Part shown: positions 15,175 through 32,332 of the stretch, in pieces
Layout of the letters: each line of letters begins with the position of its first letter
Numbering within the stretch: the stretch's first letter is position 1
From: Microcoleaceae cyanobacterium
GTDB lineage: Bacteria; Cyanobacteriota; Cyanobacteriia; Cyanobacteriales; Microcoleaceae
Direction of reading: 5' to 3'
Length of the DNA stretch: 32,463 bases
NCBI GenBank assembly: GCA_050331715.1
Contig: JBHJGO010000003.1
Span: 1-32,463, forward strand
Program-made: the position numbers and the translations under genes
The notes under the pieces: generated by a model
Database searches by the model: none
Told to the model about the DNA's origin: nothing
What the model saw: only the letters and a program-made list of their open reading frames with translations

Positions 15175-15237
15175 AAATTTCAGCATGATCCTTTCTCTGC
15201 ACATACTCTCAAGGTGTGACCTAAGAACTGGGTAGAG

Positions 15238-15576
15238 ATGATGAATATCACCTCAATCAATCACCGTTCTTCACAGGGGAAACAAAATGACATCTATGAC
15301 ACATTGACATCCAGCAGTATGTCAGATCAGGATGTCTTTGTCGTCGGTGATGGCTACTCCGGATTAGGTTATGCCAGAATCACTGACTTTGACTTTATTA
15401 GCTTTGCCAACGAAACAGAATATGACCTAATTGATCTACAGGGCAGTTTCAATCCTGGCAATGTTACGCTCAACTTGGTTGGGGGAGATACTCAGATCAC
15501 CAGTTCAACGGGGGATTCGTTGGCAGTCGTTGAGAACGTTGATCTGACGACCTTGCAGAATGTTCACTTGATTTAG
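15238..15576 (+). CDS. Hypothetical protein (112 aa), Gly/Asp/Thr-rich beta-like C-terminal region
   Basis: ORF with ATGATG start and a weak SD. No family recognised. Could be a fragment. Confidence 0.35.
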   Translation: MMNITSINHRSSQGKQNDIYDTLTSSSMSDQDVFVVGDGYSGLGYARITDFDFISFANETEYDLIDLQGSFNPGNVTLNLVGGDTQITSSTGDSLAVVENVDLTTLQNVHLI

Positions 15577-15587
15577 AATCGCTGAAT

Positions 15588-15605
15588 CTAGAATTGCAAT
15601 TCTAG
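15588..15605. repeat. Perfect 18-bp palindrome CTAGAATTGCAATTCTAG, 12 nt downstream of the ORF stop
   Basis: Read directly. Operator-like or a weak hairpin. Confidence 0.5.
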
Positions 15606-15695
15606 AGTCTTAACTTGGAGTAGGTTAGGCAATACGGGGCTTGAAGCAGCTCAAGCAGTATCTCATCTGTTTGCCCACCTTTTGAGGTCGGTTTG

Positions 15696-16166
15696 ATGTT
15701 TCTTCAGACAGACGGCAGTAGCAATGCCAAAACGTTATACCTGAGAAGATCGAATTCTGAACTGGTCAGGAGAGTAACCAAAATGGCAGTCGATGATCTG
15801 AGAAAAAGCGATATGATGTCGCATTTGCTGGATGCACTGGAGGAAAAAAAAGATATTGGACACTATGGCCGTTTGGTTTTCGTAATGGTGGCACGGCACT
15901 TTCTGAGTCAGCAGGAAGTCATTCAATATCTTCAAAAAGATCACGATTTCAGTGAAGCTGATGCTAAAAGTCTCTATCAGCAGGTTACCGATAAAAACTA
16001 CAGTCCACCACAGCGAGACAGCATTTTAGAATGGCAGCAAAGCCAGGACTTTACAATTTGTCCAAATGCTGACGATCCAGATGCTTGTAACGTTTATCAG
16101 GATCTGCAGTTTCCTAAAGAGGTCTATGAACAAATCTCGGCCTATTACGAAGAGAAACAGTCCTAG
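15696..16166 (+). CDS. Hypothetical protein (~156 aa)
   Basis: ORF from TTG 15693 / ATG 15696. GAGG lies 9 nt upstream of the ATG. No family recognised. It is followed by a clear intrinsic terminator. Confidence 0.45.
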   Translation: MFLQTDGSSNAKTLYLRRSNSELVRRVTKMAVDDLRKSDMMSHLLDALEEKKDIGHYGRLVFVMVARHFLSQQEVIQYLQKDHDFSEADAKSLYQQVTDKNYSPPQRDSILEWQQSQDFTICPNADDPDACNVYQDLQFPKEVYEQISAYYEEKQS

Positions 16167-16205
16167 GATCAATTTTTATCCTGTGGGCATTAAATCAAGT
16201 CAAAG

Positions 16206-16237
16206 AATTGGGTGGTGGAGTCGCCCAATTTTTTGTT
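16206..16237 (+). terminator. Rho-independent terminator
   Basis: 9-bp stem aattgggtg / cgcccaatt (one G-U pair), a 7-nt loop, then the tract TTTTTTGTT. Confidence 0.55.
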
Positions 16238-16371
16238 AGACTCGTTTCATCTTGGGCGGAAGCTGTATCCTTTCATCAAAGGAGTTGACTACAGGCGGAA
16301 CAACTGCAAAATCCTAGAAAAGCAGTCATACTATTTGACGTAAAGGTCTGATATCTATACAGCATTTCTCT

Positions 16372-17127
16372 ATGAATCTCCAAACCCAATTTCTTCACAT
16401 TGTTGGAAGTGGGGCCAGCGCCTACATGATGGCTCGTAATATTCGAGATACCCAAACTCGCCCCAATCTTTTAGCTGGATTCCAAATGGCTGAGGCTGGA
16501 TCGGTTCCATTTCTGGAAACGCTGCGCGATCGCGCCGCTACTGAAGGTGATACCTGGCTAGCAGAGCAATTGACTAACCACGCTCATGACGAACGCCGAC
16601 ATGGAAAGATCTTTGCTCAAGCTCTCAAGCGTTTGAACAAGCGGGCCATGACCCCGGAGGAACTGGCCGAAACTCGCAGGGATTCTTCAGAACAGCGTAG
16701 TCCATTCTTTGATGCCTTTTTCAAAGGCTATCCCTCAGAGGCTTTGAAGGCGGAAAAGATCGATTGGCTTGTCTTCATGGGCAGCACCTACATCCTGGAA
16801 CTGGATGCAAGCAAGGACTTTGTGCGAATGGCCCATGCACTTCCAGCAGACAGCGTTGATACCGTCAATACCCGCAAAGGTATCCTGAGCATCGCCCAAG
16901 ATGAAACACGTCACGCTGCCTACTTATATGAAGCGCTCCATCGACGCCTGCCTGCGATTGAGGCAATGAAAGTAATTGATCAGTGGCGACAGCGCAAGAC
17001 TGACGCCCTATTGGCAATGACAGGAAACTTCATTCAACGTCAGGGGCAGATGCGATCCATGGTTCAAGATGCTGCCCCGAATCATTCTGAGGGTGACATT
17101 GAATGGTTAGAGCCTGAAGTGGCCTAG
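16372..17127 (+). CDS. Ferritin-like di-iron carboxylate protein (paired E...ExxH motifs)
   Basis: FQMAEAG ... HDERRHGKIF ... ILELDAS ... QDETRHAAYL. This is the E / ExxH / E / ExxH ligand pattern of the ferritin-like four-helix-bundle superfamily. Exact family unknown. Confidence 0.5.
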   Translation: MNLQTQFLHIVGSGASAYMMARNIRDTQTRPNLLAGFQMAEAGSVPFLETLRDRAATEGDTWLAEQLTNHAHDERRHGKIFAQALKRLNKRAMTPEELAETRRDSSEQRSPFFDAFFKGYPSEALKAEKIDWLVFMGSTYILELDASKDFVRMAHALPADSVDTVNTRKGILSIAQDETRHAAYLYEALHRRLPAIEAMKVIDQWRQRKTDALLAMTGNFIQRQGQMRSMVQDAAPNHSEGDIEWLEPEVA

Positions 17128-17198
17128 TGAGAGTCTGTCTAGTTGGTAATGGTCTAGTCAATGATTAACTACTAACCCAAGGATTGTCTAGCCAGTAA

Positions 17199-17675
17199 CT
17201 AGCCCTCAGACTTGGCCTGTACAGGAGGTTTCTGTGGCTTCCAGGAAATTCCCAGACGCTTGAGATAGTCCCAGCCCCGTTGAGGCCAGACATGGTCGCG
17301 CCCCGTCTTCTGAGCAATCCACTCCGCAACCTTCGGGCCTGACCAGTTGCCGCCATCTGGGGCTGGGCCTTGTAGGGCCTGTTTTAGCTCCTGTTGCTGG
17401 GCTGCGCTCAGGAGTGAGCGGGCAACTGGAGGTTGTCGATCACGACTACGGTTTCTGACCGAGTTAGGGCCTTCCCGGTTATAACGTCGAATGATTTCCT
17501 TGGAATAATCGTAGTTCAGTCCAACAACCTCAGCAGATTGTTTGATTGTCCAACCATTGGCAACAAGTTGAATTAGATGCCAACGGCGAGCTTCCGTTGT
17601 ATCTCTCGCCTGACGATAGCGAGCTTTCAGATCTTCCATGGAAAGATGGGCTTCGAGATGAGCTTTCGGTGGCAT
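17199..17675 (-). mobile_element. IS630-family transposase N-terminal (HTH DNA-binding) fragment with no DDE catalytic domain (remnant)
   Basis: The 158-aa ORF has the paired-HTH architecture (RWHLIQLVANGWTIKQSAEVVGLNYDYSKEIIRRYN... WSGPKVAEWIAQKTGRDHVWPQRGWDYLKRLGISWKPQKP) typical of IS630/Tc1 N-termini. Only ~70 nt remain before the convergent upstream gene, so there is no room for a DDE domain. Confidence 0.6.
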
Positions 17676-17820
17676 ACCTACGTTTTATCCGGCACGTTAC
17701 TTTATCTATCCTCTCTATTCCAGAGAATCCGGAGGTCATCAGAACTTTTAGTGAAATTTGTGGATGAAATTTACATGAGAAATTTTTCACACCACAGGCT
17801 GAACCTCTGACTAGGCTTTC

Positions 17821-17874
17821 GCAAGATTATGTTGGTTGCAAGATTATGTTGGTTTCCGCAAGACTACGAATTTG
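17821..17874. repeat. Tandem 17-mer GCAAGATTATGTTGGTT x2 plus a degenerate third copy
   Basis: Read directly: gcaagattatgttggtt gcaagattatgttggtt tcc gcaagactacgaatttg. It lies between the IS630 remnant and gatA. Confidence 0.55.
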
Positions 17875-17928
17875 ACTGGCTCTGTTTGGTAAACTCTTGT
17901 ATTGGGAATTCAAAATGAGGGTTCAGCC

Positions 17929-19386
17929 ATGACATCCATCCGAAAGTTGCATGAGCAATTAGTTAGTAAAGAACGATCAGCTCTAGAAATTGCTCAAGGG
18001 GCATTGGATCGAGTGGAACAGCTTGAACCAAAGGTGAATAGTTTTCTCTGCATTACTGCGGAGCAGGCACTCGAACAGGCTCGTAATGTAGATGCTCAAA
18101 TTGCTGCTGGAGAGAGTATTGGTTTACTTGCAGGAGTCCCCCTGGGAATAAAAGACAACCTTTGTACGGTTGGAGTTCCCACCACTTGCGGGTCAAAGAT
18201 CTTGCAGCAATTCATTCCTCCCTATGAATCTACGGTAACTCAAAAACTAAAAAATGCGGGAGCCGTAATCCTGGGGAAAACCAATTTAGATGAGTTTGCC
18301 ATGGGTAGTTCTACTGAAAACTCCGCCTATGGCCGTAGCAACAATCCCTGGGATTTAGAGCGGGTTCCGGGAGGTTCCTCTGGCGGATCGGCGGCGGCGG
18401 TCGCTGCGGGAGAATGTTTAGTGGCCCTGGGATCAGACACTGGAGGTTCCATCCGTCAGCCCGCATCTCTCTGCGGTGTCGTCGGCATGAAGCCCACCTA
18501 CGGACTCGTCTCTCGCTATGGATTAGTAGCCTATGCTTCTTCATTGGATCAGATTGGCCCCTTCAGTCGCAGCGTTGAAGATGCGGCAATTTTGTTAGAA
18601 GCAATTGCTGGCTATGATCCGAAAGATTCTACTAGCCTTAAGGTGGAGATTCCTAATTACGTTGCCAGTCTCAAGCCAGAATTTGACAGGAAGAAGCCAA
18701 TTAAAATCGGAGTGATCCAGGAAACCTTTGGAGAGGGCTTGGATTCGGAGGTCGAACAGGCGGTAAATCAGGCAATCAAAGTTCTGGAAAAACTTGGTGC
18801 TGAAGTGCAAACGGTTTCCTGTCCTCGCTTCCGTTATGGTCTACCGACTTACTACATCATTGCTCCCTCAGAAGCATCGGCAAATCTGGCCCGTTATGAT
18901 GGGGTTAAATATGGATTCCGCAGCCCGGACAGCGACAATTTGGTGGAGATGTACTGCCAAACACGGGCAGAAGGCTTTGGTGCGGAGGTGAAGCGACGCA
19001 TTATGATCGGAACCTATACTCTCTCGGCGGGATATTACGATGCCTACTATCTCAAAGCCCAGCAAGTCCGAACCCTGATCAAACAGGATTTTGAACAAGC
19101 TCTGGAAACAGTCGATGTTTTGGTGTCCCCTACGTCTCCGACTACTGCCTTTAAAGCGGGAGAAAAAACGGCTGACCCCCTGAGCATGTACCTATCTGAC
19201 TTAATGACGATTCCCGTGAATCTGGCTGGATTACCGGGCATTAGTGTGCCCTGTGGATTTGACAAGCAGGGATTACCAATTGGATTGCAGATCATCGGAG
19301 GCGTTCTGGGGGAGGCGAAGTTGCTACAGGTGGCCTATGCCTATGAACAGAACACTGAATGGCATCAATCACAGCCTGCTCTCTGA
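17929..19386 (+). CDS. gatA: Glutamyl-tRNA(Gln) amidotransferase subunit A
   Basis: Amidase signature [15 protein letters not shown]-terminus [11 protein letters not shown]. The long ORF begins at TTG 17902. The start is placed at ATG 17929 because GAGGG sits 8 nt upstream. Confidence 0.9.
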
Positions 19387-19417
19387 AGAGCGGCATTAGT
19401 GACTAGAAGCTTACCGT

Positions 19418-20140
19418 TTACAATTCAACAGGCTCAACAACCACTTCTACCGTTGAAGGGCTATCCTGGGTAATCACTGGATAGCTCGTCGTACTAACCC
19501 AACGCAGTTGGCCTTCAAAGGTGATTTGAGCCTGGACTGCATATCGATGACTTGGGTCAATCTCTTCTGGATCATAGGTCAGTTCAAAGGGGATGGGAAC
19601 CTGTTGATCCTCGATTTGAATGGTTTGTTCAGCAATCGTAACAGCACGCGCATCTGCTATGCTAGCATCCACAAGCTTGACCTTTACCACAGCTCCTGGG
19701 GGTAAGGCGACCCGCTGACGATAGGTCACCATTCCTGATACAACACCGACTGTAGCGTTCGGTTGTGCGGCGACTACATCCTCACAGGCCATGCTTAAAG
19801 CACCAATAATCGACGGCTGAATCTGCACCTCTGGACTACTTGAACCCAGAACGTTTTGCCAGCCATACCCCTCGGTATCAAGCCGTTCCATCAGGATTTT
19901 CAGTTCGTTGAGAGAGTCGATAATCCCTGTTCGAGTTGTACCTAGAAGCGAAACCAGTTCATCTGTATCTGAGGTACCTGGCATCATTTTCACAATTGCA
20001 CAGACCTGTTTGCGACTCGGCATGGTCTGGGCGCTTGCTGACAATTGCAGCGGCAACAGGCTCAAAACTGCTAAAAGAATTAGCAAGCTAGAAAGACCTT
20101 TTAATAACAAAACCCTGTAGTCCATTGGATCATATCCCAA
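19418..20140 (-). CDS. Secreted / lipoprotein-like protein with a YbaY/YscW-like C-terminal domain
   Basis: N-terminal signal peptide (LLILLAVLSLLPLQLSASA). The C-terminal half resembles the YbaY-type lipoprotein fold (VTYRQRVALPPGAVVKVKLVD ... IPFELTYDP). Family call tentative. Confidence 0.5.
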   Translation of the reverse strand: MGYDPMDYRVLLLKGLSSLLILLAVLSLLPLQLSASAQTMPSRKQVCAIVKMMPGTSDTDELVSLLGTTRTGIIDSLNELKILMERLDTEGYGWQNVLGSSSPEVQIQPSIIGALSMACEDVVAAQPNATVGVVSGMVTYRQRVALPPGAVVKVKLVDASIADARAVTIAEQTIQIEDQQVPIPFELTYDPEEIDPSHRYAVQAQITFEGQLRWVSTTSYPVITQDSPSTVEVVVEPVEL

Positions 20141-20207
20141 ATCATGAACCCAGTTTATCAGGGTATCAATATGATCGGGAGCAGGGGTTGCTTCTATTGT
20201 CCTAAAA

Positions 20208-21512
20208 TCACTTGCCAGGTTTTAGTATCACTGCGCCATAGGCATCGGGGGACAAATAGTGTTGAGCCGCTTGCTGTAAATCAGCAGGTGTGATTGATTG
20301 AATTCGATTGGGATAGTTGAGGGCTACTGTTAGATCTCCGACCAGAGTTTGATAGTAGCCGTAGAGTCCGGCGCGATCGCTAGGGGCTTCGTTGCCAAAA
20401 ACAAATCGATTCGCAACTTGTGTCTGAATTTTAGTCAGTTCAGCCTCTGACACCCACTCCTGGTGTAGCTGCTGAATATGCTGTAGAACGATTCCTTCTA
20501 CTTCAGTTAAATTTTCCATCGGCAAACGTGCCGAAATATAGAACACACCTTGGAGCCGCTGCGTCATGTGACTGGCGGAAATCGAGGAAACCAACCCTCT
20601 CTCCTCCCTCAGATCCTTTACCAAGCGTGCCGTTCTACCCTGGCCAAGAATATAAGCCAAGATATCAATCGGATAGGTTTCTAGCAACTGTTTCATGCCT
20701 GGTGTCCGCCAAACCAGAATCAGGCGGGCCTGCTGTAGCTTCTCATCAACCACTTCCCGTCGTGTTACCTGGGCGAACCCTGATTCTGGTACGAAGTCCC
20801 AAATCGGTAAGTCCTGATGGGCTTCGTGATCAACGGTTTGAAGCTGAGCCGCTTCAACTGCATCATTCACCGTTGCAATTAATTGCTCGACTGGTAAATT
20901 TCCGACTGCAACAACGGTTGCTGATTTGGGTTGATAGTACCGTTGGTGAAAACTCTTCATTTGTTGCGGCGTGACCTGTTCAATCACGGCAGCAGGCCCC
21001 AATATAGGGCGACGATAGGGCAAGCGGTCAAATGCGGTCTCCATTGCCCGTCGGAAGGAGCGGCGGCCCGGATTATCTTCAGAGCGGCGGATCTCCTCCA
21101 GAACAACCAACCGTTCGCGCTCAAAGGCCGCTTCAGGAATACTGGGATTGAAAACAACGTCGAGTTGCAGAGGGGTAAGATAGGCAAAATCCTGGGGAGC
21201 GGTTGTGATGTAGAAGTGGGTATAATCCTGACTTGTGGCAGCATTGGTCACTGCTCCCCGCTCCTCAATCCGCCGCTCAAATTCTCCGCTAGCCAGTTGG
21301 GATGTCCCCTTGAAGACCATATGCTCTAGGAAGTGAGCCATCCCATTAATATCATCGGATTCAATTGCAGAGCCAGTATTCACCCAAACATTCAGATTCA
21401 CGGCCTCAACGGGTAACTGTTCCGCCACAATTGTCAAACCATTCGGATGATAGTGAAATGTAGGTGCATTCAAGCCTGGAACTGAGGCGGGCTTCGTTAA
21501 AGTTGAGGTCAT
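20208..21512 (-). CDS. M16 family zinc peptidase (pitrilysin/insulinase-like)
   Basis: Inverted zinc-binding motif HFLEHMVFKGT (HxxEH), 434 aa. Confidence 0.85.
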   Translation of the reverse strand: MTSTLTKPASVPGLNAPTFHYHPNGLTIVAEQLPVEAVNLNVWVNTGSAIESDDINGMAHFLEHMVFKGTSQLASGEFERRIEERGAVTNAATSQDYTHFYITTAPQDFAYLTPLQLDVVFNPSIPEAAFERERLVVLEEIRRSEDNPGRRSFRRAMETAFDRLPYRRPILGPAAVIEQVTPQQMKSFHQRYYQPKSATVVAVGNLPVEQLIATVNDAVEAAQLQTVDHEAHQDLPIWDFVPESGFAQVTRREVVDEKLQQARLILVWRTPGMKQLLETYPIDILAYILGQGRTARLVKDLREERGLVSSISASHMTQRLQGVFYISARLPMENLTEVEGIVLQHIQQLHQEWVSEAELTKIQTQVANRFVFGNEAPSDRAGLYGYYQTLVGDLTVALNYPNRIQSITPADLQQAAQHYLSPDAYGAVILKPGK

Positions 21513-21588
21513 TGGGTAGTTTCTAATTCAGTCATAAATAATACTTTCCCTATCTTAAACCCTTCTTCTGATCGGGGGTTGGGTTCTA

Positions 21589-22080
21589 TCACGCTTCCCT
21601 CGCCAACTTCCGGGCCTTGATCGCCAGCATGTCTTGAGTTAGCTGCTTTAGGCTTTCGCCCTTATCCTGCTGACCGTAGAGGTCACTGGCTTTGAGTAAA
21701 TTCGTCACACTATCATCATCCTGACGTAGGTTTGCCAGGGCCAATCCGCGATTGTGATAAGCCTCTGCCAAAATGTCCATCTGCTGGATCGCCTGGGAGA
21801 AAAAGTTGACCGCCTTTCGATACTGGCCCGCTTGAAACGCATTGTAACCTCGTTGAAATTTCACAGATGCTTCTGTTCCCGCGATAGAATCCGGTAGCGA
21901 CCCTGGCAAGCTCACAGGAGACTGGAATAACACCGAAACGCTACCTGCCCCCTGGTAGGCATAGAGCATCGCTCCAACCCCTGCTCCGGCCATTGAAAGT
22001 ATCAAGAACAGCCAGGTGAGAAAGTTTGCCGTTTCTACATCCAGATTTAAGTCAAGATTTAACATGGGTCGCCAGGGCAT
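21589..22080 (-). CDS. TPR-repeat protein with an N-terminal TM helix
   Basis: TM segment FLTWLFLILSMAGAGVGAMLYAY and TPR-like helices (AYHNRGLALANL...). The start is ambiguous (ATG at 22080 or 22065). The 5' end overlaps the stop of the upstream SRPBCC gene by 14-29 nt. Confidence 0.45.
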   Translation of the reverse strand: MPWRPMLNLDLNLDVETANFLTWLFLILSMAGAGVGAMLYAYQGAGSVSVLFQSPVSLPGSLPDSIAGTEASVKFQRGYNAFQAGQYRKAVNFFSQAIQQMDILAEAYHNRGLALANLRQDDDSVTNLLKASDLYGQQDKGESLKQLTQDMLAIKARKLAREA

Positions 22081-22498
22081 ACTCCCGAAACTGGTCTAGA
22101 TTTTTCTTCAAGGTGGATTCAACCAACCGACCGAGGAATAGGTTGTCCATCAGTTTGCCCAAAATTCCAGGAATGGCGTAGGCAACAGTCAGTCGAACAA
22201 TACTGCTCTCGTGACGGTCATAGAATCGAATTGCCCCTCGATTGGGGAGGCCGTCCACTGATTCCCATTGAATGATCTGGTTTGGGATTTGCTTCAGAAT
22301 GCGGGATAACCAACTAAATTGCCAGTTCCCTACGACCCACTTCAAACGGGAGAGTTCTGGATTTTCCTCTAGGATCGTTACGGATTCAATCCAGTCCATC
22401 CAGCGGGGCATCTGCTCCAAATCTGACCAAAGACTCCAAACCAACTCGATCGGAACGGCCACCTCAACTTGAACACTATGTTCTAACCAGTCAGACAT
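22052..22498 (-). CDS. SRPBCC superfamily (polyketide cyclase/dehydrase-like) protein
   Basis: 148 aa, AVPIELVWSLWSDLEQMPRWM pattern typical of Bet v1 / SRPBCC ligand-binding proteins. It lies 4 nt downstream of pds. Confidence 0.65.
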   Translation of the reverse strand: MSDWLEHSVQVEVAVPIELVWSLWSDLEQMPRWMDWIESVTILEENPELSRLKWVVGNWQFSWLSRILKQIPNQIIQWESVDGLPNRGAIRFYDRHESSIVRLTVAYAIPGILGKLMDNLFLGRLVESTLKKNLDQFREYALATHVKS

Positions 22499-22502
22499 TG
22501 GA

Positions 22503-23942
22503 TTAACCTGCCACCTTCTCTAAGATCACTGCTGCTGCCTGACGACCTGAGATCGTTGCTCCCTCCATACTATCGATATAGTCCTGCTGTGTGTAGCTCC
22601 CAGCCAGGAAAAAGTTTGCCACTGGAGTCGATTGGGCCGGACGATATCGATCCATGCCCGGTGCCTCTCGATACAGGGATTGAGCCAATTTCACGACGCT
22701 GTACCAGGTCATATTCAGCTCCCGAGCGGAGGGAAACAATTGCTGAACTTGATGGAGAACGTGGTAGGCGATCGCTTCATTACTCTGCTTAATGAACGGA
22801 TCACCGGGGGTTAAAACCAGTTGTAGCAGGGAACCCTGACCTTCTCGGTAGTAGTCTCCTGGACTGGTCAGCGCTAAATCAGCAAAGCAAGAGAAATCTG
22901 CGTCTGGCGTGTAGAGCAAATTATCCATCCCGGCAGCATGATGCAATTGCTTACGCTGTTTGGGGTCATGGAGTTCCGTCACCCAGCCATCGAACCGCAG
23001 TTGTACCGTCGCGACAGGAACTGTGTCTAACTTATAGATGTTGTCGAACTCGGGCCATTTACGCCATTCTGGGGGAATCAGTTTCTGAGCACCTGGAACG
23101 TCACAGGCACAGACGTAGGCATCAGCTTCAACTTGTTCTTCCGTTTCTCCTTGGGCGACAACCATACCTGTTACCTGGGTCTTGCCATCTACCTCCGTGA
23201 ATTGCAATTCTCGAACCCGGCGGCGAGTATGGATCTGAGTGCCTCGCTGCTGAAGATAGTTCACAATCGGCTGGTGCAGGTATTGGTCGGGCGATCCCTC
23301 CAACATTCTCAGGACAGAAGCCTCAGTTCGAGCGGCAAAGAGCTGGAAAATCGTCAACATGCAACGGGCTGAGATATTCTCCGTGTCGATGAAGCCCAGG
23401 GCGTAGGCAATGGGGTTCCACATTCGCTTCAGGCTCCCCTCAGAACCGCCATGGCTACGGAACCAGTCTGCAAAGCTGACCCGATCCAATTCTCGAATGG
23501 TTTTCATTGCTCCATCAAAGTCAACCAAACCCCGCACGATAGGGCTAGTTCCCAGCGCCAGGGAATTTTGCAGCTTGTCTGCTGTCGACAACAGAGAGGT
23601 CGTGAAAAATGCCTTCAGCCCGTTGAAAGGTGCCCCTGTAAGGAATCGAAAATCCAGGCTACCGGTTCTCCCCCCTTGATTAACAAAAGTATGAGTGTGC
23701 TGCTTGAGCCGTAAATGCTCAAAGGCTCCGACCTGCCGCATCAACTCGAATAAATTGTAGTAGCACCCGAAGAAAACATGGAGACCCATCTCCAAATGGT
23801 TCCCCTCCGCATCCGTCCAGCTCCCAACCTTACCGCCAACAAAAGGACGTGACTCAAAAATTTCTACCTGATGTCCAGCATCAGCCAGGCTCACAGCGGT
23901 CGCCATGCCCGCCAGACCTGCGCCTGCGATTACAACTCGCAT
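22503..23942 (-). CDS. pds: 15-cis-phytoene desaturase (plant/cyanobacterial type)
   Basis: [24 protein letters not shown]... FAD fold and Pds/CrtP-like throughout. The start is placed at MRVV (23942), which matches the canonical Pds N-terminus. The long ORF extends to 23984. Confidence 0.9.
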
Positions 23943-24429
23943 TCCACTCCAGATCCTTAACGTTTTGTTCACAGATTGTAACAAAGTTCGTTTATTTCTG
24001 GGTAATTCATACTTGAGAACGTTTGAGACAGCCTGTTTTCTCCAGAGAGGAACAGGCCCTTCAGTTAAATATTGAAAGGAGCTGTTTGGAGATCTGGCAA
24101 AGTTAACGAGCTTTGTGTGAAGATTTAGTAAAGCTTAATAATATTGATAGAATTGTAATAAGCTCTGCTCAAAGTGTATGGGAGATTACAAGGAAATGGG
24201 GGTTGGGGCGGTAAGCTCAGAAGAGCACAGCAGTTGAACTGGTCTAGATGCATAATGCCTTTCAGATTTCAAAATTCTTCCAGTCAGTACAGGTTCCAGT
24301 GAGTGTAGGTCAGTGAAATCCTGCCACACGTGATGTTGTAAAAGTTTGGGTCTGTAGTTTTTTTCTCTGTGTCGTGTGCTCCCGTCTTAGCCATTGTGTG
24401 ATTGGCGCTACTGGGTTGGTGCTGTCGCT

Positions 24430-24465
24430 CCCTTCACCCTCTTTTCACAAATCATCTGTGATTGC
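24430..24465. repeat. Copy A of a ~36-nt direct repeat containing the palindrome AATCA-TCTG-TGATT
   Basis: cccttcaccctcttttcacaaatcatctgtgattgc. It pairs with copy B 111 bp downstream. Confidence 0.6.
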
Positions 24466-24540
24466 ATGGCAGTCATGGGTCAGTTATGGGAAAAGCTATG
24501 GAGGGGTTTGGGGACGAAGTCTCCAAAGAGAGGGAACACA

Positions 24541-24576
24541 CCCTCCACCCCCTTCTTACAAATCACTTGTGATTAC
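24541..24576. repeat. Copy B of the ~36-nt direct repeat, containing the perfect 14-bp palindrome AATCACTTGTGATT
   Basis: ccctccacccccttcttacaaatcacttgtgattac. It is ~80% identical to copy A. Confidence 0.6.
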
Positions 24577-24809
24577 TATGTTTCCCTGGGTTTGCTCAGC
24601 ATGTCTTTTTTTGCTCTCAAGACTTTAAGTTCAATCATTCCTTTCAAAGCATCCCTTCTTTATCAGAGAGTTAGAGGTGGTATGGGCTTCTAGAATGGGT
24701 CAAGTATATATCACCAAATATGGCGGTGTTCCATTCGACGGGTCTACGATGGGGACGGGGAGCTGCTAGGTTTTTTGTATACACTATTCGAATACTCAGA
24801 ACAATCAAA

Positions 24810-26018
24810 ATGAACCAAAATTACCATCAGAGTGACTGTCCAGTTTGCGGTTCAAGCCAATGGGATATTTTCTTTGAAATGTCTGGTGTCCCTGTTTTTT
24901 GTAACGTTTTATGGCCTGAACGCTCGGAGGCAAAAAACTGTAATCGAGGTGATCTAAAACTAGCATTTTGCTCCAATTGTGGTTTCATCGGGAATACGGC
25001 CTTTGATCCTGATCGGTTGGACTATTCCCAGGCCTACGAGAATGCCCTGGACTTTTCCCCCCGCTTTCAATCCTATGCAAAATCTCTGGCTTCTCGACTC
25101 GTTGAACAGTATGATTTGCACCATAAAACAGTATTAGAAATCGGTTGTGGCAAGGGAGAATTTCTGCTTTCACTGTGTCAATCGGGTGAGAACCAAGCAA
25201 TCGGCTTTGACCCAACCTACGTTCCCCTGGAAGAACATGCTTGGGCCGACGGTAAGATCGAGTTTGTCCGAGATTACTATTCAGAAAAGTATGCCGACTA
25301 TCAAGGTGACTTTATCTGCTGCCGTCATACTTTAGAGCACATTCCTCAACCCACCAAGTTGCTACACACTCTCCATCACAACATCCAAGGTTGCGATGAT
25401 ACTAATATTTTCTTCGAAGTTCCTAATGCGCTCGATACATTCTCTCGCTCGGCGATTTGGGACATTATCTATGAACACTGTTGTTACTTCTCGCCGGTTT
25501 CTCTCTCCTATGCTTTTTCAAGTTGCGGATTTAGAGTTGAGCAAGTGACAGAAGCGTTTCAGAGACAGTTCCTTTGCCTAGAAGCAAGTTTGGGAGAAAC
25601 GGTTAAGACTCTAACCGAAGAACAAAAGGAGGAGACTCAGCAACTTTTACAGGACATTGAGCAATTTACAGAACGATTTGAGCGAACTCTGAAGATTTGG
25701 CACGAGAAGCTGGAAAAGTGGAGTCAGAATCTTCAGAAAGTTGTGCTGTGGGGAGCAGGGTCTAAGGGAGTAACGTTCCTGAATTTCCTCAAGATCGATA
25801 GCTCTGCCGAGAGTCCAATTCAATATGTTGTGGACATCAATCCTCGGAAACAGGGCATGTATATTGCCGGAACCGGACAAAAGATTATCTCCCCTGAGTT
25901 TTTGAAAGAGTATCAACCAGATGTTGTGATTGTGATGAATCCAATCTATAAGGATGAAATCCAACAAATGTTGACGGATCTGGAAGTCGAAAACTGTGTT
26001 CTAGAAGATGGATTTTAG
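24810..26018 (+). CDS. Class I SAM-dependent methyltransferase with an N-terminal Cys4 zinc-ribbon and a C-methyltransferase-like C-terminal domain (TylCIII/NovU-like architecture)
   Basis: CPVCGS...CSNCGF zinc ribbon, SAM motif I VLEIGCGKGEF, ~400 aa. The start is placed at MNQNYHQSDCPVCG (ATG 24810), not the upstream extension from 24720. Confidence 0.65.
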   Translation: MNQNYHQSDCPVCGSSQWDIFFEMSGVPVFCNVLWPERSEAKNCNRGDLKLAFCSNCGFIGNTAFDPDRLDYSQAYENALDFSPRFQSYAKSLASRLVEQYDLHHKTVLEIGCGKGEFLLSLCQSGENQAIGFDPTYVPLEEHAWADGKIEFVRDYYSEKYADYQGDFICCRHTLEHIPQPTKLLHTLHHNIQGCDDTNIFFEVPNALDTFSRSAIWDIIYEHCCYFSPVSLSYAFSSCGFRVEQVTEAFQRQFLCLEASLGETVKTLTEEQKEETQQLLQDIEQFTERFERTLKIWHEKLEKWSQNLQKVVLWGAGSKGVTFLNFLKIDSSAESPIQYVVDINPRKQGMYIAGTGQKIISPEFLKEYQPDVVIVMNPIYKDEIQQMLTDLEVENCVLEDGF

Positions 26019-26121
26019 GATGGCCAGATAAGCTGACGTGATTGACGTTACTCAGAAATTCGGCGGACAAGGTGAAGATTTGTTAAGGTAGTAGGGTTAA
26101 TCTCTATGCCGAGCTGAAACG

Positions 26122-27777
26122 ATGAACCGCACAATTGTTTGGTTTCGTCGTGACCTCCGAATTTCTGATCATGCCCCCCTGTATCGAGCGACCAAGCGGG
26201 GAGAGGTAATTCCTGTTTTTATCTTAGATTCTGCCCTGCTACATCATCCTGAAACCGGAGCAGCACGGGTAGCTTTCATGTTGGACTGCCTTCAAAAACT
26301 GGATCAGGATCTACAGGAACGAGGCGGTCGGCTAATCCTGCGGTTTGGTGATCCGGTGGAAGTCTTACCAAAGCTCATTCGGGACACCGAAGCAGAGGGA
26401 ATTTATACCTACATTGACTACGAACGAATTTATGGTCGGGTACGAGATGCGCGGCTGAATCAGGTACTTGACCAGGAACAGATGAAAATTCGCTGGTTTG
26501 AGCCTGCGGCAGGAACCGCAAGTTTGATCGCCTATCCCCAATATCGAGAGTGGTGGTTTGCCCAGATGCAGGAACCGATGCACCCAGCACCCCAACGGAT
26601 TAAGGTTCCTGAAACGGTGGAGAGCGAACCGCTACCCACTTTACCAAGCTTGGGATTAATGCTGGATAAAAAACCGATTCCTCCTGCTGGAACCGAAGCC
26701 GCCCGCAATCTTTTACGAGATTTTTTGGCCAACAAAACCCAGCGATATTACTGGCAACTCTCCTATCCCAGTGCTGAAGCAACCACTGGCATTAGTCCCC
26801 ATGTAAAGTTCGGCGTGATTTCTGTTCGAGAATGTTACCAGGTGATCCAGGCGTATCCCGCTGAGGGGGACAATCGGGTTGAACGCAGTAAACAGCAAGC
26901 GATTGCTCGGTTGCGATGGGGCGTTGGATTTGCCCAACGGTTTCGTTACTTACCGCAGTTGGAGCTGCGATCGCTCTATTCCATCTTCGACGAGGAAGGT
27001 TGGCCCTTTGACGAGGAACTGTACGAAGCCTGGAAACGAGGCCAGACAGGATTTCCAATTGTGGATGCGGCAGCTCGGTGTCTTCAAGCGACGGGCGGTT
27101 GGCAAGCACTGAATTTTCGCAGTCGAGCGATTTATGCCAGTTTCTTGGGAAACCTGTTAGGCATGGACTGGCGCTATGGTGCATTGCACTTTATGCAGCA
27201 CTTGATCGATGGGGATTGCCCGATTGACCATTATCAGTGGGCCATGCAGGTGGGAGTCACCCACTGCATTGATAAAACCTGGACAAGAATTTACAATCCT
27301 GGCCAGGTGGCAGTAGATCGGTGCGATCCGGAAGGAGCCTTTATTAAATATTGGTTGCCAGAACTAGCTCACTTACCACCGGAGACTTTGGGAAATCCTC
27401 CGCCAACGGCAGGCTATCCTGCTCCAATTTTGGATTATCGCAAAGCCCGCAAACAGCGAGTTGATCAGCTACAGCATCAGCGAGAAGTCTTTCTGGGCCA
27501 TGAAAATGTGTTAGGTTTCCTGGCTCGAATGCCCCAGGACTTGACGCCCTTTGGTAGTCATCTCAGGCAGTGCGAGGTGAGTTGGGCGATGAATTGTCCC
27601 GGTGAACTTTTCCCAAAAGCGTTAAATCTGGAGAGTTTGACTGAAACCCAAGCGAAGGCACTCCGCACCTGGTTTGTGGCTCATGTGGATATCAAGCCCC
27701 CCCGCAAGCGAACGCGCCGCCGCAAAAAGAAACCCGTTGATTCAGACGAGTTTGTGCAGTTGTGTTTACCGATCTAG
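26122..27777 (+). CDS. Photolyase/cryptochrome family (CPF) flavoprotein with a poly-basic C-terminal tail
   Basis: N-terminus TIVWFRRDLRISDHAPL and FAD-binding core RGQTGFPIVDAAARCLQATGGW...RSRAIYASFL. 551 aa. Tail KPPRKRTRRRKKKPVDSDEF. Subfamily (CPD photolyase vs CRY-DASH vs other) not resolvable by eye. Confidence 0.8.
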   Translation: MNRTIVWFRRDLRISDHAPLYRATKRGEVIPVFILDSALLHHPETGAARVAFMLDCLQKLDQDLQERGGRLILRFGDPVEVLPKLIRDTEAEGIYTYIDYERIYGRVRDARLNQVLDQEQMKIRWFEPAAGTASLIAYPQYREWWFAQMQEPMHPAPQRIKVPETVESEPLPTLPSLGLMLDKKPIPPAGTEAARNLLRDFLANKTQRYYWQLSYPSAEATTGISPHVKFGVISVRECYQVIQAYPAEGDNRVERSKQQAIARLRWGVGFAQRFRYLPQLELRSLYSIFDEEGWPFDEELYEAWKRGQTGFPIVDAAARCLQATGGWQALNFRSRAIYASFLGNLLGMDWRYGALHFMQHLIDGDCPIDHYQWAMQVGVTHCIDKTWTRIYNPGQVAVDRCDPEGAFIKYWLPELAHLPPETLGNPPPTAGYPAPILDYRKARKQRVDQLQHQREVFLGHENVLGFLARMPQDLTPFGSHLRQCEVSWAMNCPGELFPKALNLESLTETQAKALRTWFVAHVDIKPPRKRTRRRKKKPVDSDEFVQLCLPI

Positions 27778-27800
27778 ATTCGCTCAACCTACCCACGAGA

Positions 27801-28862
27801 TTAACCAGAATCTCTCATCTGATGGGGTGGGATTACAGGCTGCTGATTGGATTGCACTGAAGTGGACTGACCCATATTCTCAATTACCCCTGGCACATCA
27901 AGACCCGTGGTTTGTTTCAATTCTTCCAGGAACTGAGCAATTTTCGTAGCTGAACTGCCATTCTTGCTGTCAATCACCGTCACCTGATCCACTTCGACTT
28001 GAGGTACCGTTGAAACCATGGTTTTGAGCAGGATTTCTAGTTTCTGATAGAGGAAGATTTCTCTGGCATTGGTTCCGGCCGCCTGCCAGGACTCGGCCAA
28101 ACGTTTGATCCCCTCTGCCTGGGCTTTTCCTTCCTCAATAATCCTGGAGGCATCTCCTTGAGCCTGGGCAATTGATTGTTTACAATTGGCTTCTGCCGGA
28201 GCAATCACATCAGCTTGCAGTTGTTGCTCAACCTGCTTAATCCTCTCCTGTTGCACAGCAACCTCTGCCTGGGTTCGGGCGACTGCTGCTGCAATTTCGG
28301 ATTCAGATTCGGCAATCACCGCCTGACGCTTGGTCAGGGCATCTTGCACGCGCCGCTCCGCCTCAACTCTGGCCACTTCAATTTCCGTATCCAAATTTTT
28401 CAGGGCTGTATTTCTTTTATTCTCTGCGGTGCGAATCATGGACTCAGCGCGGGTTTGGGCCTCAGTAATTCGGGCATCCCGGAGCAACTCTGCCTGTTGC
28501 TTGCGGCCAATGGAATCCAAATATCCAACATCATCGGAAATATTCTGAATTTGCAGGGTATCCAGAATCAATCCTAACCGTTCCAAATCATCCTCAGCTT
28601 CCTCCAGCAAGCTCTTTGCTAAAGCTAACTTGTCCCCATTCACCTGTTCTGGGGTGAGGCTGGCTAGAACCCCCCGCAGATTTCCTTCCAGGGTTTCCTT
28701 GGCAATCCGCTCAATGGCTTTGCGATCTTTACCCAGTAATCTTTCAATCGCATTGTGAATCGTCGGTTCCTCACCTGCAATCTTGATATTGGCAACGCCT
28801 TCAACGTTGAGCGGGATTCCACCTTTGGAATAGGCATTGGAAACCTTCAGATCAATGATCAT
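27801..28862 (-). CDS. SPFH/band-7 flotillin-like protein, anchor-less 353-aa ORF (C-terminal portion of a disrupted flotillin paralog)
   Basis: Its sequence aligns with residues ~120-471 of the adjacent intact flotillin (NAYSKGGIPLNVEGVANIKI / NAYSRGGTPLNIQAIANVKI). Ala/Glu/Gln-rich coiled-coil tail. Confidence 0.55.
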   Translation of the reverse strand: MIIDLKVSNAYSKGGIPLNVEGVANIKIAGEEPTIHNAIERLLGKDRKAIERIAKETLEGNLRGVLASLTPEQVNGDKLALAKSLLEEAEDDLERLGLILDTLQIQNISDDVGYLDSIGRKQQAELLRDARITEAQTRAESMIRTAENKRNTALKNLDTEIEVARVEAERRVQDALTKRQAVIAESESEIAAAVARTQAEVAVQQERIKQVEQQLQADVIAPAEANCKQSIAQAQGDASRIIEEGKAQAEGIKRLAESWQAAGTNAREIFLYQKLEILLKTMVSTVPQVEVDQVTVIDSKNGSSATKIAQFLEELKQTTGLDVPGVIENMGQSTSVQSNQQPVIPPHQMRDSG

Positions 28863-29090
28863 GTTGGTTTAATCCATCCGATAGGCTTGCTCCAGCAAAG
28901 GAACTCGAATGCTACTACCACCCTTGACAATCCGGTATCCTACGTCCTGACTTTTTTTTTTTTATGTTAGTGCTACCTCATATATCTACACTTCACTGGG
29001 CTGACAGATGTAGTAAAGATTCCGAATGATAAAGGCCCCGGCTCCGGTTCCCACACCCAGTACCGTGAGCAATGCAATCAAAATTTCCAT
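28863..29090 (-). pseudogene. Disrupted N-terminal part (membrane anchor + start of SPFH domain) of the flotillin paralog, containing three in-frame stop codons
   Basis: Minus-strand translation from the ATG at 29090 gives MEILIALLTVLGVGTGAGAFIIRNLYYICQPSEV*IYEVALT*KKKSQDVGYRIVKGGSSIRVPLLEQAYRMD*TNMIIDLKV... This is colinear and in the same frame as the neighbour's ...ALPIALSVFGVIAIIWFINSFLQICKPNEVLILSGRKRKNKDGHELGYRVIFGGRTLCIPILETVKTMDLTTMPVPVEV. The stops are at + coordinates 28986-28988 (TAG), 28962-28964 (TAA, at the edge of the A12 run) and 28869-28871 (TAA, where the neighbour has Leu). Confidence 0.55.
28952..28963. repeat. T12 homopolymer (A12 on the coding strand) inside the disrupted flotillin N-terminus
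   Basis: Read directly. It encodes the KKK stretch aligned to the neighbour's RKRKNK. Homopolymers like this are prone to slippage. Confidence 0.7.
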
Positions 29091-29151
29091 GATTTTAATG
29101 TCCTAGTTTCTTACAGCAATGTCTACAGCAATTTCAGTAATATTTGTGGTC

Positions 29152-30567
29152 TTAGCGCTCTGGGTTAATATTTACGCCAGAACTCAGTTGAGGGGGGACT
29201 TTTCCGTTGGTTTCGGAGCAGGAGCCAGTCAGATGAATTCCCAGGGTTTGATCCACGTTTTGCAGGAATTGACGGAAGATTTCGGGATAGGCATTCACCA
29301 AGTTGGCGATTGATTTGCCATCGCCGTTATCGATCACATTCACCTGTTTCAGATCTACGCGACCGGGAATCTTTGCCGCTTCTTGCAGAATCATTTCAAT
29401 TTGTTGTAAGTAGAATAGCTCCGCTGCATCTTTTCCCGTTTCCTGCCAAACCGCCGATAATAAATCGTTGACTTGAGCAGTCGCACGGGCATTTTCCAGG
29501 ACGGGAGCCGCTTCTCCCTTGGCATTCAATTCTTGCGCTTGCCGCTGGGCCTCTGCGGGTAGCACTTGATCAACTTCCAGCCGTAGGCGTTCTAGCTCAG
29601 CCCGAATCGTCTGTAACTGCTGTTCCGCACGGGCGCGGGCTTCTTTCGCAGCGGCAATGGTACGTTCTTCCTCGGAGCGAGCCTGCTGTTCGAGTTCAGC
29701 TTGAATCTTGCGGAGTTCGTTTTGCTTCTGCTGAACGGTGGTTTGGGCCTGAGTTTTTACTACTTCTGCTTCCCGTTTGCAGTCGGCTTCCGTTTGTTCG
29801 GCTTCGGCCACTGCATTGGATTCGGCCACTTCAGCATCGCGGGCAATCATGGCAATCTGACGCCGACCGATGGAACTAAGGTAATCCACATCGTCAGAAA
29901 CACTCTGAATTTTCAACGTATCCAATTGCAGTCCTAGTTTCGACAGATCGCGGGAAACGTCTTCGGCAATCCGCTCTGCAAATTGCAAGCGATCCTCATT
30001 CAACTGTTCCGGTGTCAGGGTACTAACCACACCCCGCAGATTACCTTCAAGGGTTTCACGGGCAACCCGCACAATCTCAGAGCGATCGCGATCCAGGAAA
30101 CGCTCAATTGCATTGCCAACAATCGTGGGGTCATTAGAAATTTTGACATTGGCGATCGCCTGAATATTCAGGGGCGTTCCACCCCTGGAATAGGCGTTGG
30201 TGACTTCCACGGGAACTGGCATCGTGGTCAAATCCATGGTTTTCACCGTTTCCAAAATTGGAATACACAGGGTACGTCCCCCAAAAATCACCCGATAGCC
30301 CAACTCGTGGCCATCTTTGTTCTTGCGCTTACGACCGGAGAGGATCAGCACTTCATTGGGCTTACAAATTTGCAGAAAGCTATTGATGAACCAAATGATT
30401 GCAATCACCCCGAACACTGACAGGGCAATGGGAAGAGCGGTGAGAACTTCCCCCCGTAGATTATTGTTGCTATTATTCTGAGCCACCAACTGGGAATCTG
30501 GAGTCGTCTGCACCACTTCGACAGTGACCACATCGCCCTCTAAGGAAGAAACTAACTGATTATTCAT
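29152..30567 (-). CDS. Flotillin-like SPFH/band-7 membrane protein (YqiK/FloT-like), intact
   Basis: N-terminal TM helix (LTALPIALSVFGVIAIIWFINSF), SPFH domain, then a long Ala/Glu/Gln/Arg-rich coiled coil. 471 aa. Immediately downstream of the NfeD-like gene. Confidence 0.8.
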   Translation of the reverse strand: MNNQLVSSLEGDVVTVEVVQTTPDSQLVAQNNSNNNLRGEVLTALPIALSVFGVIAIIWFINSFLQICKPNEVLILSGRKRKNKDGHELGYRVIFGGRTLCIPILETVKTMDLTTMPVPVEVTNAYSRGGTPLNIQAIANVKISNDPTIVGNAIERFLDRDRSEIVRVARETLEGNLRGVVSTLTPEQLNEDRLQFAERIAEDVSRDLSKLGLQLDTLKIQSVSDDVDYLSSIGRRQIAMIARDAEVAESNAVAEAEQTEADCKREAEVVKTQAQTTVQQKQNELRKIQAELEQQARSEEERTIAAAKEARARAEQQLQTIRAELERLRLEVDQVLPAEAQRQAQELNAKGEAAPVLENARATAQVNDLLSAVWQETGKDAAELFYLQQIEMILQEAAKIPGRVDLKQVNVIDNGDGKSIANLVNAYPEIFRQFLQNVDQTLGIHLTGSCSETNGKVPPQLSSGVNINPER

Positions 30568-30690
30568 GATATTTATCTCAATTGAGTTTTAACGAGAAAT
30601 GGCATCACTTGCAAGAAACAATCTTTTAAACTAAGTGCATTTCTAAATTTCTAAAACTTGCCCCATTCCTGATCAGGGCTGCGATGGGAA

Positions 30691-30738
30691 ATTATGCAAG
30701 GGATTATGCAAAAAATTATGCAAAAAACTATGCAACGG
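30691..30738. repeat. Four tandem 12-mers (ATTATGCAAGGG / ATTATGCAAAAA / ATTATGCAAAAA / ACTATGCAACGG) in the nfeD-flotillin intergenic region
   Basis: Read directly. On the coding (minus) strand this places a TTGCATA core every 12 nt, ~125 nt upstream of the flotillin start. Confidence 0.65.
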
Positions 30739-30760
30739 GAGTTGCGCGTACTGCCACAAC

Positions 30761-31363
30761 TTAATCGTCAGTTTTTCCAAAGGCAAGCTCAGAAACTACC
30801 CAAACTCGATTGTTCTCTACACCAACCACATAGACTGGAGACCCCGCTGCAAAGGCTGTCTTTTCCTCCGTCATCGCTGAAAAGTCAACCCAGGTTCCCT
30901 TGACCCGGAGCCGTACTTTGCCTCTGCTCTCGGTATCAAAGGGAATTTCTACCACTCCTTGCAATCCGAGCAAGTCCTGGGAACGAACCAGGCTATCAGC
31001 CTGTTGATGTTGCAGCGCTCGAAAAACCCACACCATCGCTGTACCGCAAATCAAACCTACCAACGCAGCAAGCATTAAGACTTGTCTGGCCGACAAGTCA
31101 GCCCCCAGGACAGACAAAAGAATACCTGCCAATCCAAAAAAACAACTCCCAAATGTCCAAAATCGCAGGTTGAAAAACGGTACGCCCAGCGTCTTGATCC
31201 AGGAAGAGCGTCGCTTAGTTTGATTCATCGAATTTGATGAGTCCACCAACTCCACATCTGGATCAAAATCCAGTTCAAAGTCAGCTCCATCTAGTCCCGC
31301 GATCGCAGCTAGCCCAACAAATACCCCTCCCACGATTAGACAAAATAGGTAAAGCGTAAACAT
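30761..31363 (-). CDS. NfeD-like membrane protein (short YuaF/YqiJ type), flotillin partner
   Basis: Two N-terminal TM segments, an acidic linker, further TM helices, and a C-terminal beta-rich OB-fold-like region (GKVRLRVKGTWVDFSAMTEE...PVYVVGVENNRVWVV). NfeD is classically encoded immediately upstream of flotillin/stomatin genes. Confidence 0.65.
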   Translation of the reverse strand: MFTLYLFCLIVGGVFVGLAAIAGLDGADFELDFDPDVELVDSSNSMNQTKRRSSWIKTLGVPFFNLRFWTFGSCFFGLAGILLSVLGADLSARQVLMLAALVGLICGTAMVWVFRALQHQQADSLVRSQDLLGLQGVVEIPFDTESRGKVRLRVKGTWVDFSAMTEEKTAFAAGSPVYVVGVENNRVWVVSELAFGKTDD

Positions 31364-31562
31364 AGCATTGATAGATTCCTAAATCATGATCGGGTCTCTG
31401 GTCAGTCATTGTACCTGATGTGAATAGTTTTCTTGCAAAGACTTCCTGCGGAGGTGATTGAACAGTATCAACATCGGATACCATCTATTCTGGCAAATCC
31501 CTCTCCGGATCTGGCAGGAACTTATCAAAATTTGACATACTCACCGTCCTGAAGGAGCGGTA

Positions 31563-32332
31563 ATTCTCATTGATTATAGGTTGCTAACGAGACTACTTAA
31601 TTGCTCTGGTTTCCCATCACAATCAGTGGCAGGACTCTCCCCTGTCGTTCCCTCTTCCGAGGCAGTTTCCCCATGCCCTAGGGTACTGTCAATGTTCCAC
31701 TCATGGCCTAAGGTATTCATCCCTCGCTGCAAGATATTCATTGCTGCGGCTGTATCCCTACAAGTCTCAAACTTGCAATTCGGACATGAATGAGTTCTGG
31801 TACTGAGAGACTTCCTCTCTCTATGTCCACAATTGGGGCAATCTTAACTTGTGAAGCGTGGGTCTACAGCTATCACCGTCTTATCCCAAATCTGTCCATA
31901 GTAGTTGAGCCATTGAGTAAATTGATACCAACCAGCATCAGATATAGATTTAGCTAGGTTATGGTTCCTAACCATGTTCGCCACCTTCAGGTCTTCATAG
32001 ACAATCACATCGTTAGAGTGAACTACGCACCGAGCGGTCTTTACTGCCCAGTCTTTACGCTGTCTTTGTACCTTGAGGTGGGCTTTGCCCAGTCTCTCTC
32101 TGGCATCGTGGTAGTTTTTTGATTGGGGCTTTTTGCCCTTCACAAACTTTTTAGATAGTCGTCGCTGTAGTTTTTTGATTCGCTGTTCTGCTTTTCTCAG
32201 ATATTGAGGATAGACAATAGCATTGTCGTTCTGGTCTTTGTAGAAGTACTTCAAACCAAGATCTAAGCCCACTATCTGCCCGGTATAGCGGATTTCAGAA
32301 TTATGAAGTACATTTAGTAATAAAAAAAACAA
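31563..32332 (-). mobile_element. tnpB: IS200/IS605-family TnpB (OrfB) remnant: C-terminal half only, with an in-frame TAA in the zinc-finger region
   Basis: The ORF 31844-32332 matches the TnpB RuvC-like core (GLDLGLKYF ... IVYEDLKVANM ... LAKSISDAGWYQF ... VDPRFTS). Translation continues in the same frame past a TAA at 31844-31846 (where a Gln is expected) into DCPNCGHRERKSLSTRTHSCPNCKFETCRDTAAAMNILQRGMNTLGH..., which is the TnpB zinc finger and C-terminus. It ends near 31563. The N-terminal ~200 aa are missing. Confidence 0.6.

Follow-up and report, generated by a model that had tools for sequence, protein, structure and literature searches.

In-frame stop codons in the second flotillin gene of a Microcoleaceae metagenome-assembled genome probably belong to the deposited consensus and not to the gene

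The second flotillin gene of a Microcoleaceae cyanobacterium, deposited with three in-frame stop codons, is probably an intact and ordinary gene; the deposited consensus would contain local errors or, at most, represent an allele that is not fixed. The DNA we analysed (the window) is a complete 32,463-nt contig of a metagenome-assembled genome (MAG), the neighbouring proteins of which carry accessions MGF14909xx and locus tags ACFBSC_. A first-pass annotation of this contig had reported two tandem flotillin-like genes on the minus strand, the distal one interrupted in its N-terminal part, and had offered three explanations: (i) a recent pseudogene with a truncated product, (ii) translational recoding or readthrough, and (iii) a sequencing or assembly error in a low-complexity patch. 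Both genes and all three stops are indeed present in the deposited sequence (Table 1). Of the three explanations, the last is best supported, because an independent Logan assembly has the sense codon TTA (Leu) at stop 3, and because stops 1 and 2 lie in a patch that is missing from that assembly.

Three co-directional minus-strand genes make up the locus: an nfeD-like gene, flotillin paralog 1 and flotillin paralog 2, with a spacer of 61 nt between the two paralogs. The remaining genes of the window are densely packed and intact. The NfeD-like protein matches the C-terminal NfeD domain weakly (E = 2.2e-5, under the Pfam cut-off). Among 80 orthologous loci, a paralog lies directly upstream of the second flotillin gene in 74, and an nfeD-like gene lies upstream in 71. 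With an NfeD-like gene upstream on the same strand, the locus falls in the NfeD-associated flotillin (SPFH2) family. An operon of NfeD2 and two SPFH2 (flotillin-like) genes, in which the SPFH2 member is duplicated, has been described for cyanobacteria (Hinderhofer et al. 2009, BMC Evol Biol 9:10; PMC2636767). The tandem flotillin arrangement is therefore known and ordinary. In gene order and shared strand the locus is like the cyanobacterial NfeD2-SPFH2-SPFH2 operon of the Syc1604_d / Syc1607_d / Syc1608_d type, from which it shows no biological difference, the interruptions of the deposited paralog 2 not being reproduced in independent data. It is, in short, an ordinary, widespread and conserved cyanobacterial nfeD-floT1-floT2 cassette.

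Table 1. Features of the flotillin cassette and of the interrupted stretch (positions are those of the window)
Feature	Position (nt)	Strand	Description	Basis
nfeD-like membrane protein gene, first gene of the cassette	30761..31363	-	200 aa	Pfam NfeD C-terminal domain
Flotillin paralog 1	29152..30567	-	471 aa, intact	Band_7 domain, E = 1.6e-22
Flotillin paralog 2	27801..29090	-	429 codons + stop; three in-frame stops as deposited	Translation, BLASTP, orthologues
A/T-rich patch, 47 nt	28952..28998	-	Absent from Logan; holds stop 1, the candidate deletion, stop 2 and the A12 run	Contig ends
Stop 1, codon 35	28986..28988	-	TAG; orthologues Leu (TTG/TTA/CTN)	Translation and DNA alignment
Codons 36-38	28977..28985	-	ATA TAT GAG; orthologues ATT TTT GCN	DNA alignment, 45 orthologues
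Stop 2, codon 43	28962..28964	-	TAA, at the edge of the A12 run	Translation, frame 3, DNA alignment
A12 homopolymer	28952..28963	-	T12 on the + strand; longest homopolymer of the window	Sequence
Stop 3, codon 74	28869..28871	-	TAA; Logan TTA (Leu); residue invariant in orthologues	Logan and orthologues
Residual 353-aa ORF	27801..28862	-	Starts at Met77	NCBI 'MAG: flotillin family protein [Microcoleaceae cyanobacterium]' (P0001)
Codon 157	28620..28622	-	TTA (Leu) in the window; Logan TTT (Phe)	Phe invariant in 16 aligned orthologues

Both flotillin-like proteins belong to the SPFH / Band 7 superfamily (PF01145): against a cut-off of 23.6 bits, copy 1 scores 80.9 bits and copy 2, with its stops masked as X, scores 80.0 bits. 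They are flotillin-family proteins and not FloT equivalogs, because they reach 136-170 bits with NCBIfam NF058507 (the B. subtilis-type FloT equivalog), for which the cut-off is 700 bits. Inspection by eye of the paralog 2 translation shows a hydrophobic N-terminus, MEILIALLTVLGVGTGAGAFII, which is a putative membrane anchor, and an Ala/Glu/Gln-rich region, which is a putative coiled coil. The same N-terminal anchor, SPFH/Band_7 domain and long Ala/Glu-rich helical region are found in Bacillus subtilis FloT (YuaG), known together with NfeD2 (YuaF) and likewise operon-paired with NfeD. FloT of B. subtilis is, however, a distant relative, and its operon has one flotillin whereas there are two here.

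The conceptual protein of paralog 2 aligns with paralog 1 from residue 2 onwards (BLASTP, 39% identity, E = 2e-86), without a gap in the interrupted region, and the orthologues align with it codon for codon. The homology that had been claimed for the two copies through the interrupted N-terminus thus held at the level of codons. The spacing between the EV and YR anchors, also part of that claim, is equal in both copies, at 51 nt (17 codons) and not the 54 nt originally given. Homologues of paralog 2 number thousands; the closest, from Lyngbya, Limnoraphis, Capilliphycus, Planktothrix, Okeania and Trichodesmium, are 73-79% identical and all full-length. Their residue is Leu at the sites of stop 1 (EVLIFAG) and stop 3 (RMDLTNMII), whereas at stop 2 it is basic and variable. 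The N-terminus is uninterrupted in 79 of the 80 orthologous loci, the remaining one being cut by a contig edge, so the check for an intact second copy that the first-pass annotation had proposed comes out in favour of one; a truncated form like the 353-aa ORF occurs in none of the 80. In the GTDB species-representative set there is no relative near enough for a base-by-base comparison (amino-acid identity is at most 79%).

The conservation of the N-terminus does not suggest a long-standing pseudogene. Across codons 1-34 and 48-76 (63 codons), identity to the nearest orthologues is 79-84%, and for codons 77-400 it is 79-83%. There is consequently no relaxed-constraint drift, since outside codons 35-47 the N-terminus is conserved to the same degree as the remainder of the gene. 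Judging from these sequences, three stops that had accumulated independently, during a long period of drift in a pseudogenised N-terminus, would have left a different picture. At the 208 columns that are invariant among 16 orthologues, the window differs at 12. Three of these (positions 35, 37 and 39) are inside the patch and two (positions 74 and 157) are contradicted by the Logan assembly; the other seven are conservative (I/L, Y/F, D/E, T/A, V/A, I/V and Q/K) and common to the Logan assembly.

Read in frame from 29090 to 27801 on the minus strand, paralog 2 gives MEILIALLTVLGVGTGAGAFIIRNLYYICQPSEV-stop-IYEVALT-stop-KKKSQDVGYRIVKGGSSIRVPLLEQAYRMD-stop-TNMIIDLKV..., then 353 open codons. To resolve the interrupted stretch, codons 29-54 were aligned at the DNA level with 45 orthologues. 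Where the orthologues have ...GTG TTG/CTN ATT TTT GCN GGN AGY..., the window has GTG TAG ATA TAT GAG GTA GCA C. Stop 1 needs a single T>A change (TTG to TAG), and the next two codons probably carry a T>A change each (ATT>ATA and TTT>TAT); ATA is rare in the window (15 of 521 Ile codons). Codon 38 appears to have lost one nucleotide, the C of GCA, between 28979 and 28978, which would cause a frameshift and turn the Gly-Ser codons GGT AGC into the reading GAG GTA GCA. Frame 3 here reads GSTNIKKKK, with the near-invariant Gly39 at its exact position and Ser40 next to it, as in many orthologues. With A11 in place of A12, the GS TNI KKK reading rejoins SQDVGYR, and the repaired reading has 16 codons between EV and GYR, as in most orthologues. 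Stop 2 would thus be an out-of-frame reading and not a substitution, as it lies between the deletion in codon 38 and the extra A (A11 to A12), which compensate each other; it is gone once both are repaired. We infer that the true patch sequence would read EV-LIFAGSTNIKKKSQDV-GYR. The earlier description of three independent nonsense changes without any frameshift therefore does not fit stop 2, which stems from two compensating 1-nt indels.

No A-run is present at the position of the patch in any of the 45 orthologues of the DNA alignment. A search of the window for a direct or inverted repeat, or for a second copy, from which template switching or gene conversion could have made the 47-nt patch, found none. 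An origin of the patch from paralog 1 was considered and rejected, as the patch has no resemblance to the equivalent segment of the paralog.

Five Logan contigs of SRA run SRR6462995 were retrieved via exact-protein look-ups of the neighbouring genes. They cover positions 168-13334, 15243-20325, 24545-28951 and 28999-31628 of the window, with 13335-15242 and 20326-24544 outside the comparison. Over the 25,317 nt aligned there are no gaps and seven mismatches (99.97% identity), and the paralog 1 protein has an identical copy in contig L081. In contig L082 the frame stays open at codon 74, which is TTA (Leu): ...EQAYRMDLTNMIIDLKV... Stop 3 and F157L are therefore absent from the independent assembly, and the origin of stop 3 from TTA, which the first-pass annotation had proposed, agrees both with the Logan codon and with the Leu that is invariant in orthologues. 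Lesions of a fixed pseudogene should reproduce in independent data from the same organism; stop 3 did not. The sense codons that had been named as decisive against the original claim were accordingly found at stop 3 (TTA), while stops 1 and 2 fall in the stretch that the Logan contigs skip. For these two, we infer the same technical origin as for stop 3.

The skipped stretch coincides with the patch. The end of L081 is at 28999, and L082 begins at 28951, directly after the A-run; the GC content of the patch between them (28952-28998) is 28%, that of the window 48%. Elsewhere, L083 and its neighbour L084 share 30 nt (k-1), as expected for a k=31 graph. At the patch, by contrast, either coverage was missing or a bubble in the graph was left unresolved. 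Such a bubble could lie between two real alleles. The Logan assembly does not directly contradict stops 1 and 2. The start of L082 directly after A12 is the sole hint that touches on heterogeneity in the length of the run. When the 353-aa ORF and the N-terminal ORF of 34 aa were looked up as exact proteins, no assembly other than the MAG turned up with the lesion region, and two DNA scans of JGI metagenome contigs, with anchors on either side of the patch, gave no match to it.

All seven mismatches between the Logan contigs and the window (positions 3067, 4307, 4377, 4717, 28620, 28870 and 31412) are A<->T transversions; transitions, C<->G changes and indels are all absent. The changes by which the sense codons of the orthologues would become stops 1 and 3 belong to this class, too. 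In natural polymorphism transitions dominate, and the chance of seven A<->T differences out of seven is about 1e-7, assuming that one natural SNP in ten (10%) is A<->T. This gives the disagreements a technical appearance. No shared sequence motif was seen around the seven sites, and we know of no platform or pipeline that yields only A<->T errors. Not every one of these differences, however, would point to an error of the MAG. At 3067 (codon 427 of lpdA) the MAG has Phe, common to the three closest orthologues, and Logan has Ile; among 118 homologues 58 have Ile and 39 Phe, so that this codon appears to be naturally variable. The difference at 4717 (Q/L) is in an ankyrin-repeat protein without close orthologues, for which a homologue search gave generic ankyrin matches.

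The variation in lpdA is among the observations that speak for a different reading, which we regard as unlikely: that the lesions are a real and very recent floT2 null allele of the strain, of a sub-population or of a subset of chromosome copies. By this account several A:T>T:A changes and the -1/+1 indels at a slippery A-run arose in a clustered event and made a functionless nascent pseudogene; the MAG consensus is the null allele, and the Logan assembly shows the intact allele where it could. The Ile/Phe difference suggests that some of the differences between the MAG and Logan are genuine strain differences, and pseudogenes do occur here, a TnpB remnant in the window carrying a genuine in-frame nonsense codon (CAA>TAA). 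The lesions come from a deposited assembly, so some reads presumably carry them, and the ends of the Logan contigs coincide with the two edges of the patch, which a two-allele bubble would produce. The A12 run, being the longest of the window, is intrinsically prone to slippage. With the MAG from a different sample than SRR6462995, its allele could be real.

The distribution and type of the lesions, however, argue against a null allele. Seven A<->T differences out of seven, without transitions, are unlike natural polymorphism. At least five lesions in about 40 nt, against a 0.03% difference over the 25-kb flank, would require a single complex event and not drift. The compensating indels would bring no selective benefit, since the shifted segment holds a stop. 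The rest of the N-terminus shows no excess divergence, and the operon is conserved, with the gene intact in all but one of the orthologous loci. Explanation (i), a recent pseudogene with a truncated product, hence stays as a minority rival. It is still less likely, and in our view rather improbable, that the MAG allele is a real null of the second flotillin that segregates in a filamentous, probably polyploid population and was made by one clustered error-prone event; if this were true, A<->T-only differences over 25 kb would mean an unusual in-situ mutational process. A long coding A-run with an apparent +1 change in length resembles poly(A)-tract frameshift pseudogenes and contingency loci. 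Tamas and colleagues (PNAS, 2008) reportedly described endosymbiont genes with interruptions at poly(A) tracts, for which transcriptional slippage brings a partial rescue. In contrast to such pseudogenes, the gene analysed here has extra nonsense codons beyond what slippage could rescue, and the run is absent from orthologues.

Long A-runs promote transcriptional and ribosomal slippage, and the overall length of the gene is preserved, both of which would suit programmed recoding, i.e. production of the full-length protein by readthrough or suppression of stops, combined with slippage of the ribosome or the RNA polymerase on the A-run. This would need two different readthrough events and, within the same 120 nt, two frameshifts. 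Stops and comparable A-runs are absent from all orthologues at these positions, so that there is no conserved recoding site, and sense codons are present in 79 of 80 orthologous loci. Nor does the window give any sign of a suppressor tRNA or an altered code: its genes end in TAA (11 genes), TAG (10) and TGA (5), and it contains no tRNA gene. One of the stops, moreover, is the sense codon TTA (codon 74) in the Logan assembly. On these grounds explanation (ii), recoding or readthrough, was rejected, and we assign it practically no probability.

The 353-aa ORF exists as had been reported, is open and highly conserved, and is annotated by NCBI as a protein. It could in principle be expressed from Met77 as a soluble flotillin fragment without the anchor which, for example, co-assembles with paralog 1, a scenario that we consider very improbable. 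That it is open follows from an intact gene in the population, as the Logan assembly indicates, and does not call for selection on the fragment itself. In all orthologues Met77 is a conserved internal residue, part of the 'NMII' motif; the sequence upstream of 28862 has no Shine-Dalgarno-like motif at a suitable spacing; and, as noted above, the 80 orthologous loci hold no such truncated form. The description of this ORF as an anchor-less SPFH protein also understates what is lost. The repaired copy 2 scores 83.1 bits with Band_7 and covers profile positions 4-176, whereas the 353-aa ORF scores 59.2 bits and covers positions 45-176 only; in addition to the membrane anchor it lacks the first 44 of the 176 profile positions, that is, the first quarter of the SPFH domain and with it part of the SPFH fold.

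We thus favour errors of the consensus in an intact gene. The interruptions would then belong to the deposited MAG consensus and not to the gene, and would comprise A<->T miscalls (TTG>TAG, ATT>ATA, TTT>TAT, TTA>TAA and TTT>TTA) and a -1/+1 indel pair around the A11/A12 homopolymer. These errors would be concentrated in or near the 47-nt, 28%-GC patch, which short-read data would have covered poorly. MAG consensus errors occur at stretches of low coverage, low GC or homopolymers. The lesions resemble such errors in that they cluster in a 28%-GC patch, which contains a 12-nt homopolymer and which the k-mer assembly did not cross, and in that they include a change of homopolymer length. The A<->T-only spectrum, in contrast, fits no textbook error profile of any platform known to us.

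The biological significance of the interruptions is little, as the operon was already known in 2009 and the population seems to carry an intact gene; the second gene would encode a normal membrane-anchored flotillin-type SPFH scaffold protein. Caution is nevertheless warranted, as a truncated 353-aa 'flotillin family protein' is now in public protein databases, and counts of pseudogenes, dN/dS estimates or arguments for soluble flotillins that draw on this MAG would be misled. If the A<->T-only discrepancy were biological, it would point to an unusual mutational process.

Over the 25,317 nt compared, the Logan assembly of SRR6462995 differs from the deposited MAG contig at seven single bases, and all seven differences are A↔T transversions. 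They run in both directions and are grouped in two zones (3067-4717 and 28620-31412), with zero differences between the two assemblies in 9485-13334 and 15243-20325. A search for a motif common to the seven sites found none.

Features of the window discussed here
Feature	Window position	Strand	Detail
Ankyrin-repeat protein	4635-5540	+	301 aa
Small HTH-only 'transposase' ORF	17199-17675	-	158 aa; HTH_23/HTH_32
Photolyase/cryptochrome-family gene	26122-27777	+	551 aa
IS605-type TnpB remnant	31574-32332	-	OrfB_IS605, E = 4e-19
A↔T difference sites, MAG contig versus Logan	3067, 4307, 4377, 4717, 28620, 28870, 31412		

Near the contig end, the TnpB remnant is interrupted by one in-frame TAA (31844-31846, minus strand), read from the deposited contig alone because it lies outside the Logan contigs. 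This codon sits where TnpB usually has Gln (RFTS-Q-DCPNCG), that is, CAA>TAA, and the zinc-finger/RuvC C-terminus stays in the same frame beyond it; the N-terminal half is absent or degraded toward the end of the contig at 32463. The HTH-only ORF stands isolated, flanked by housekeeping genes, and probably represents the N-terminal portion of an IS630-like transposase. For the ankyrin-repeat protein, no close cyanobacterial orthologue was found among the best 120 database matches, the top ones being generic ankyrin proteins (30-40% identical).

The photolyase/cryptochrome-family gene is convergent with the flotillin operon, only 23 nt separating the two stop codons, and its product has an unusual C-terminal tail, rich in Arg/Lys (KPPRKRTRRRKKKPVDSDEF...). 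Within the operon, floT2, the second flotillin paralog, belongs to the shorter of two length classes seen among its orthologues, ~410-450 aa versus ~505-540 aa (protein alignment A1, columns 400-540; P0002, P0006, P0010, P0014, P0028 and others). In the longer form, a conserved stretch of ~80 aa (...GGQExLKxxFNHPxVYIPTAMVxxWL) extends the C-terminus.

The nfeD-floT1-floT2 cassette (27801-31363 in the window) is kept at 74 of the 80 orthologous flotillin loci, L001-L080, and its conservation extends over Oscillatoriales, Nostocales, Pleurocapsales and Leptolyngbya-like genomes. Because floT1 and floT2 are only ~39% identical to one another, whereas each is 65-80% identical to its own orthologues, the sequences point to an ancient duplication. 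The two flotillins may also constitute an obligate pair.
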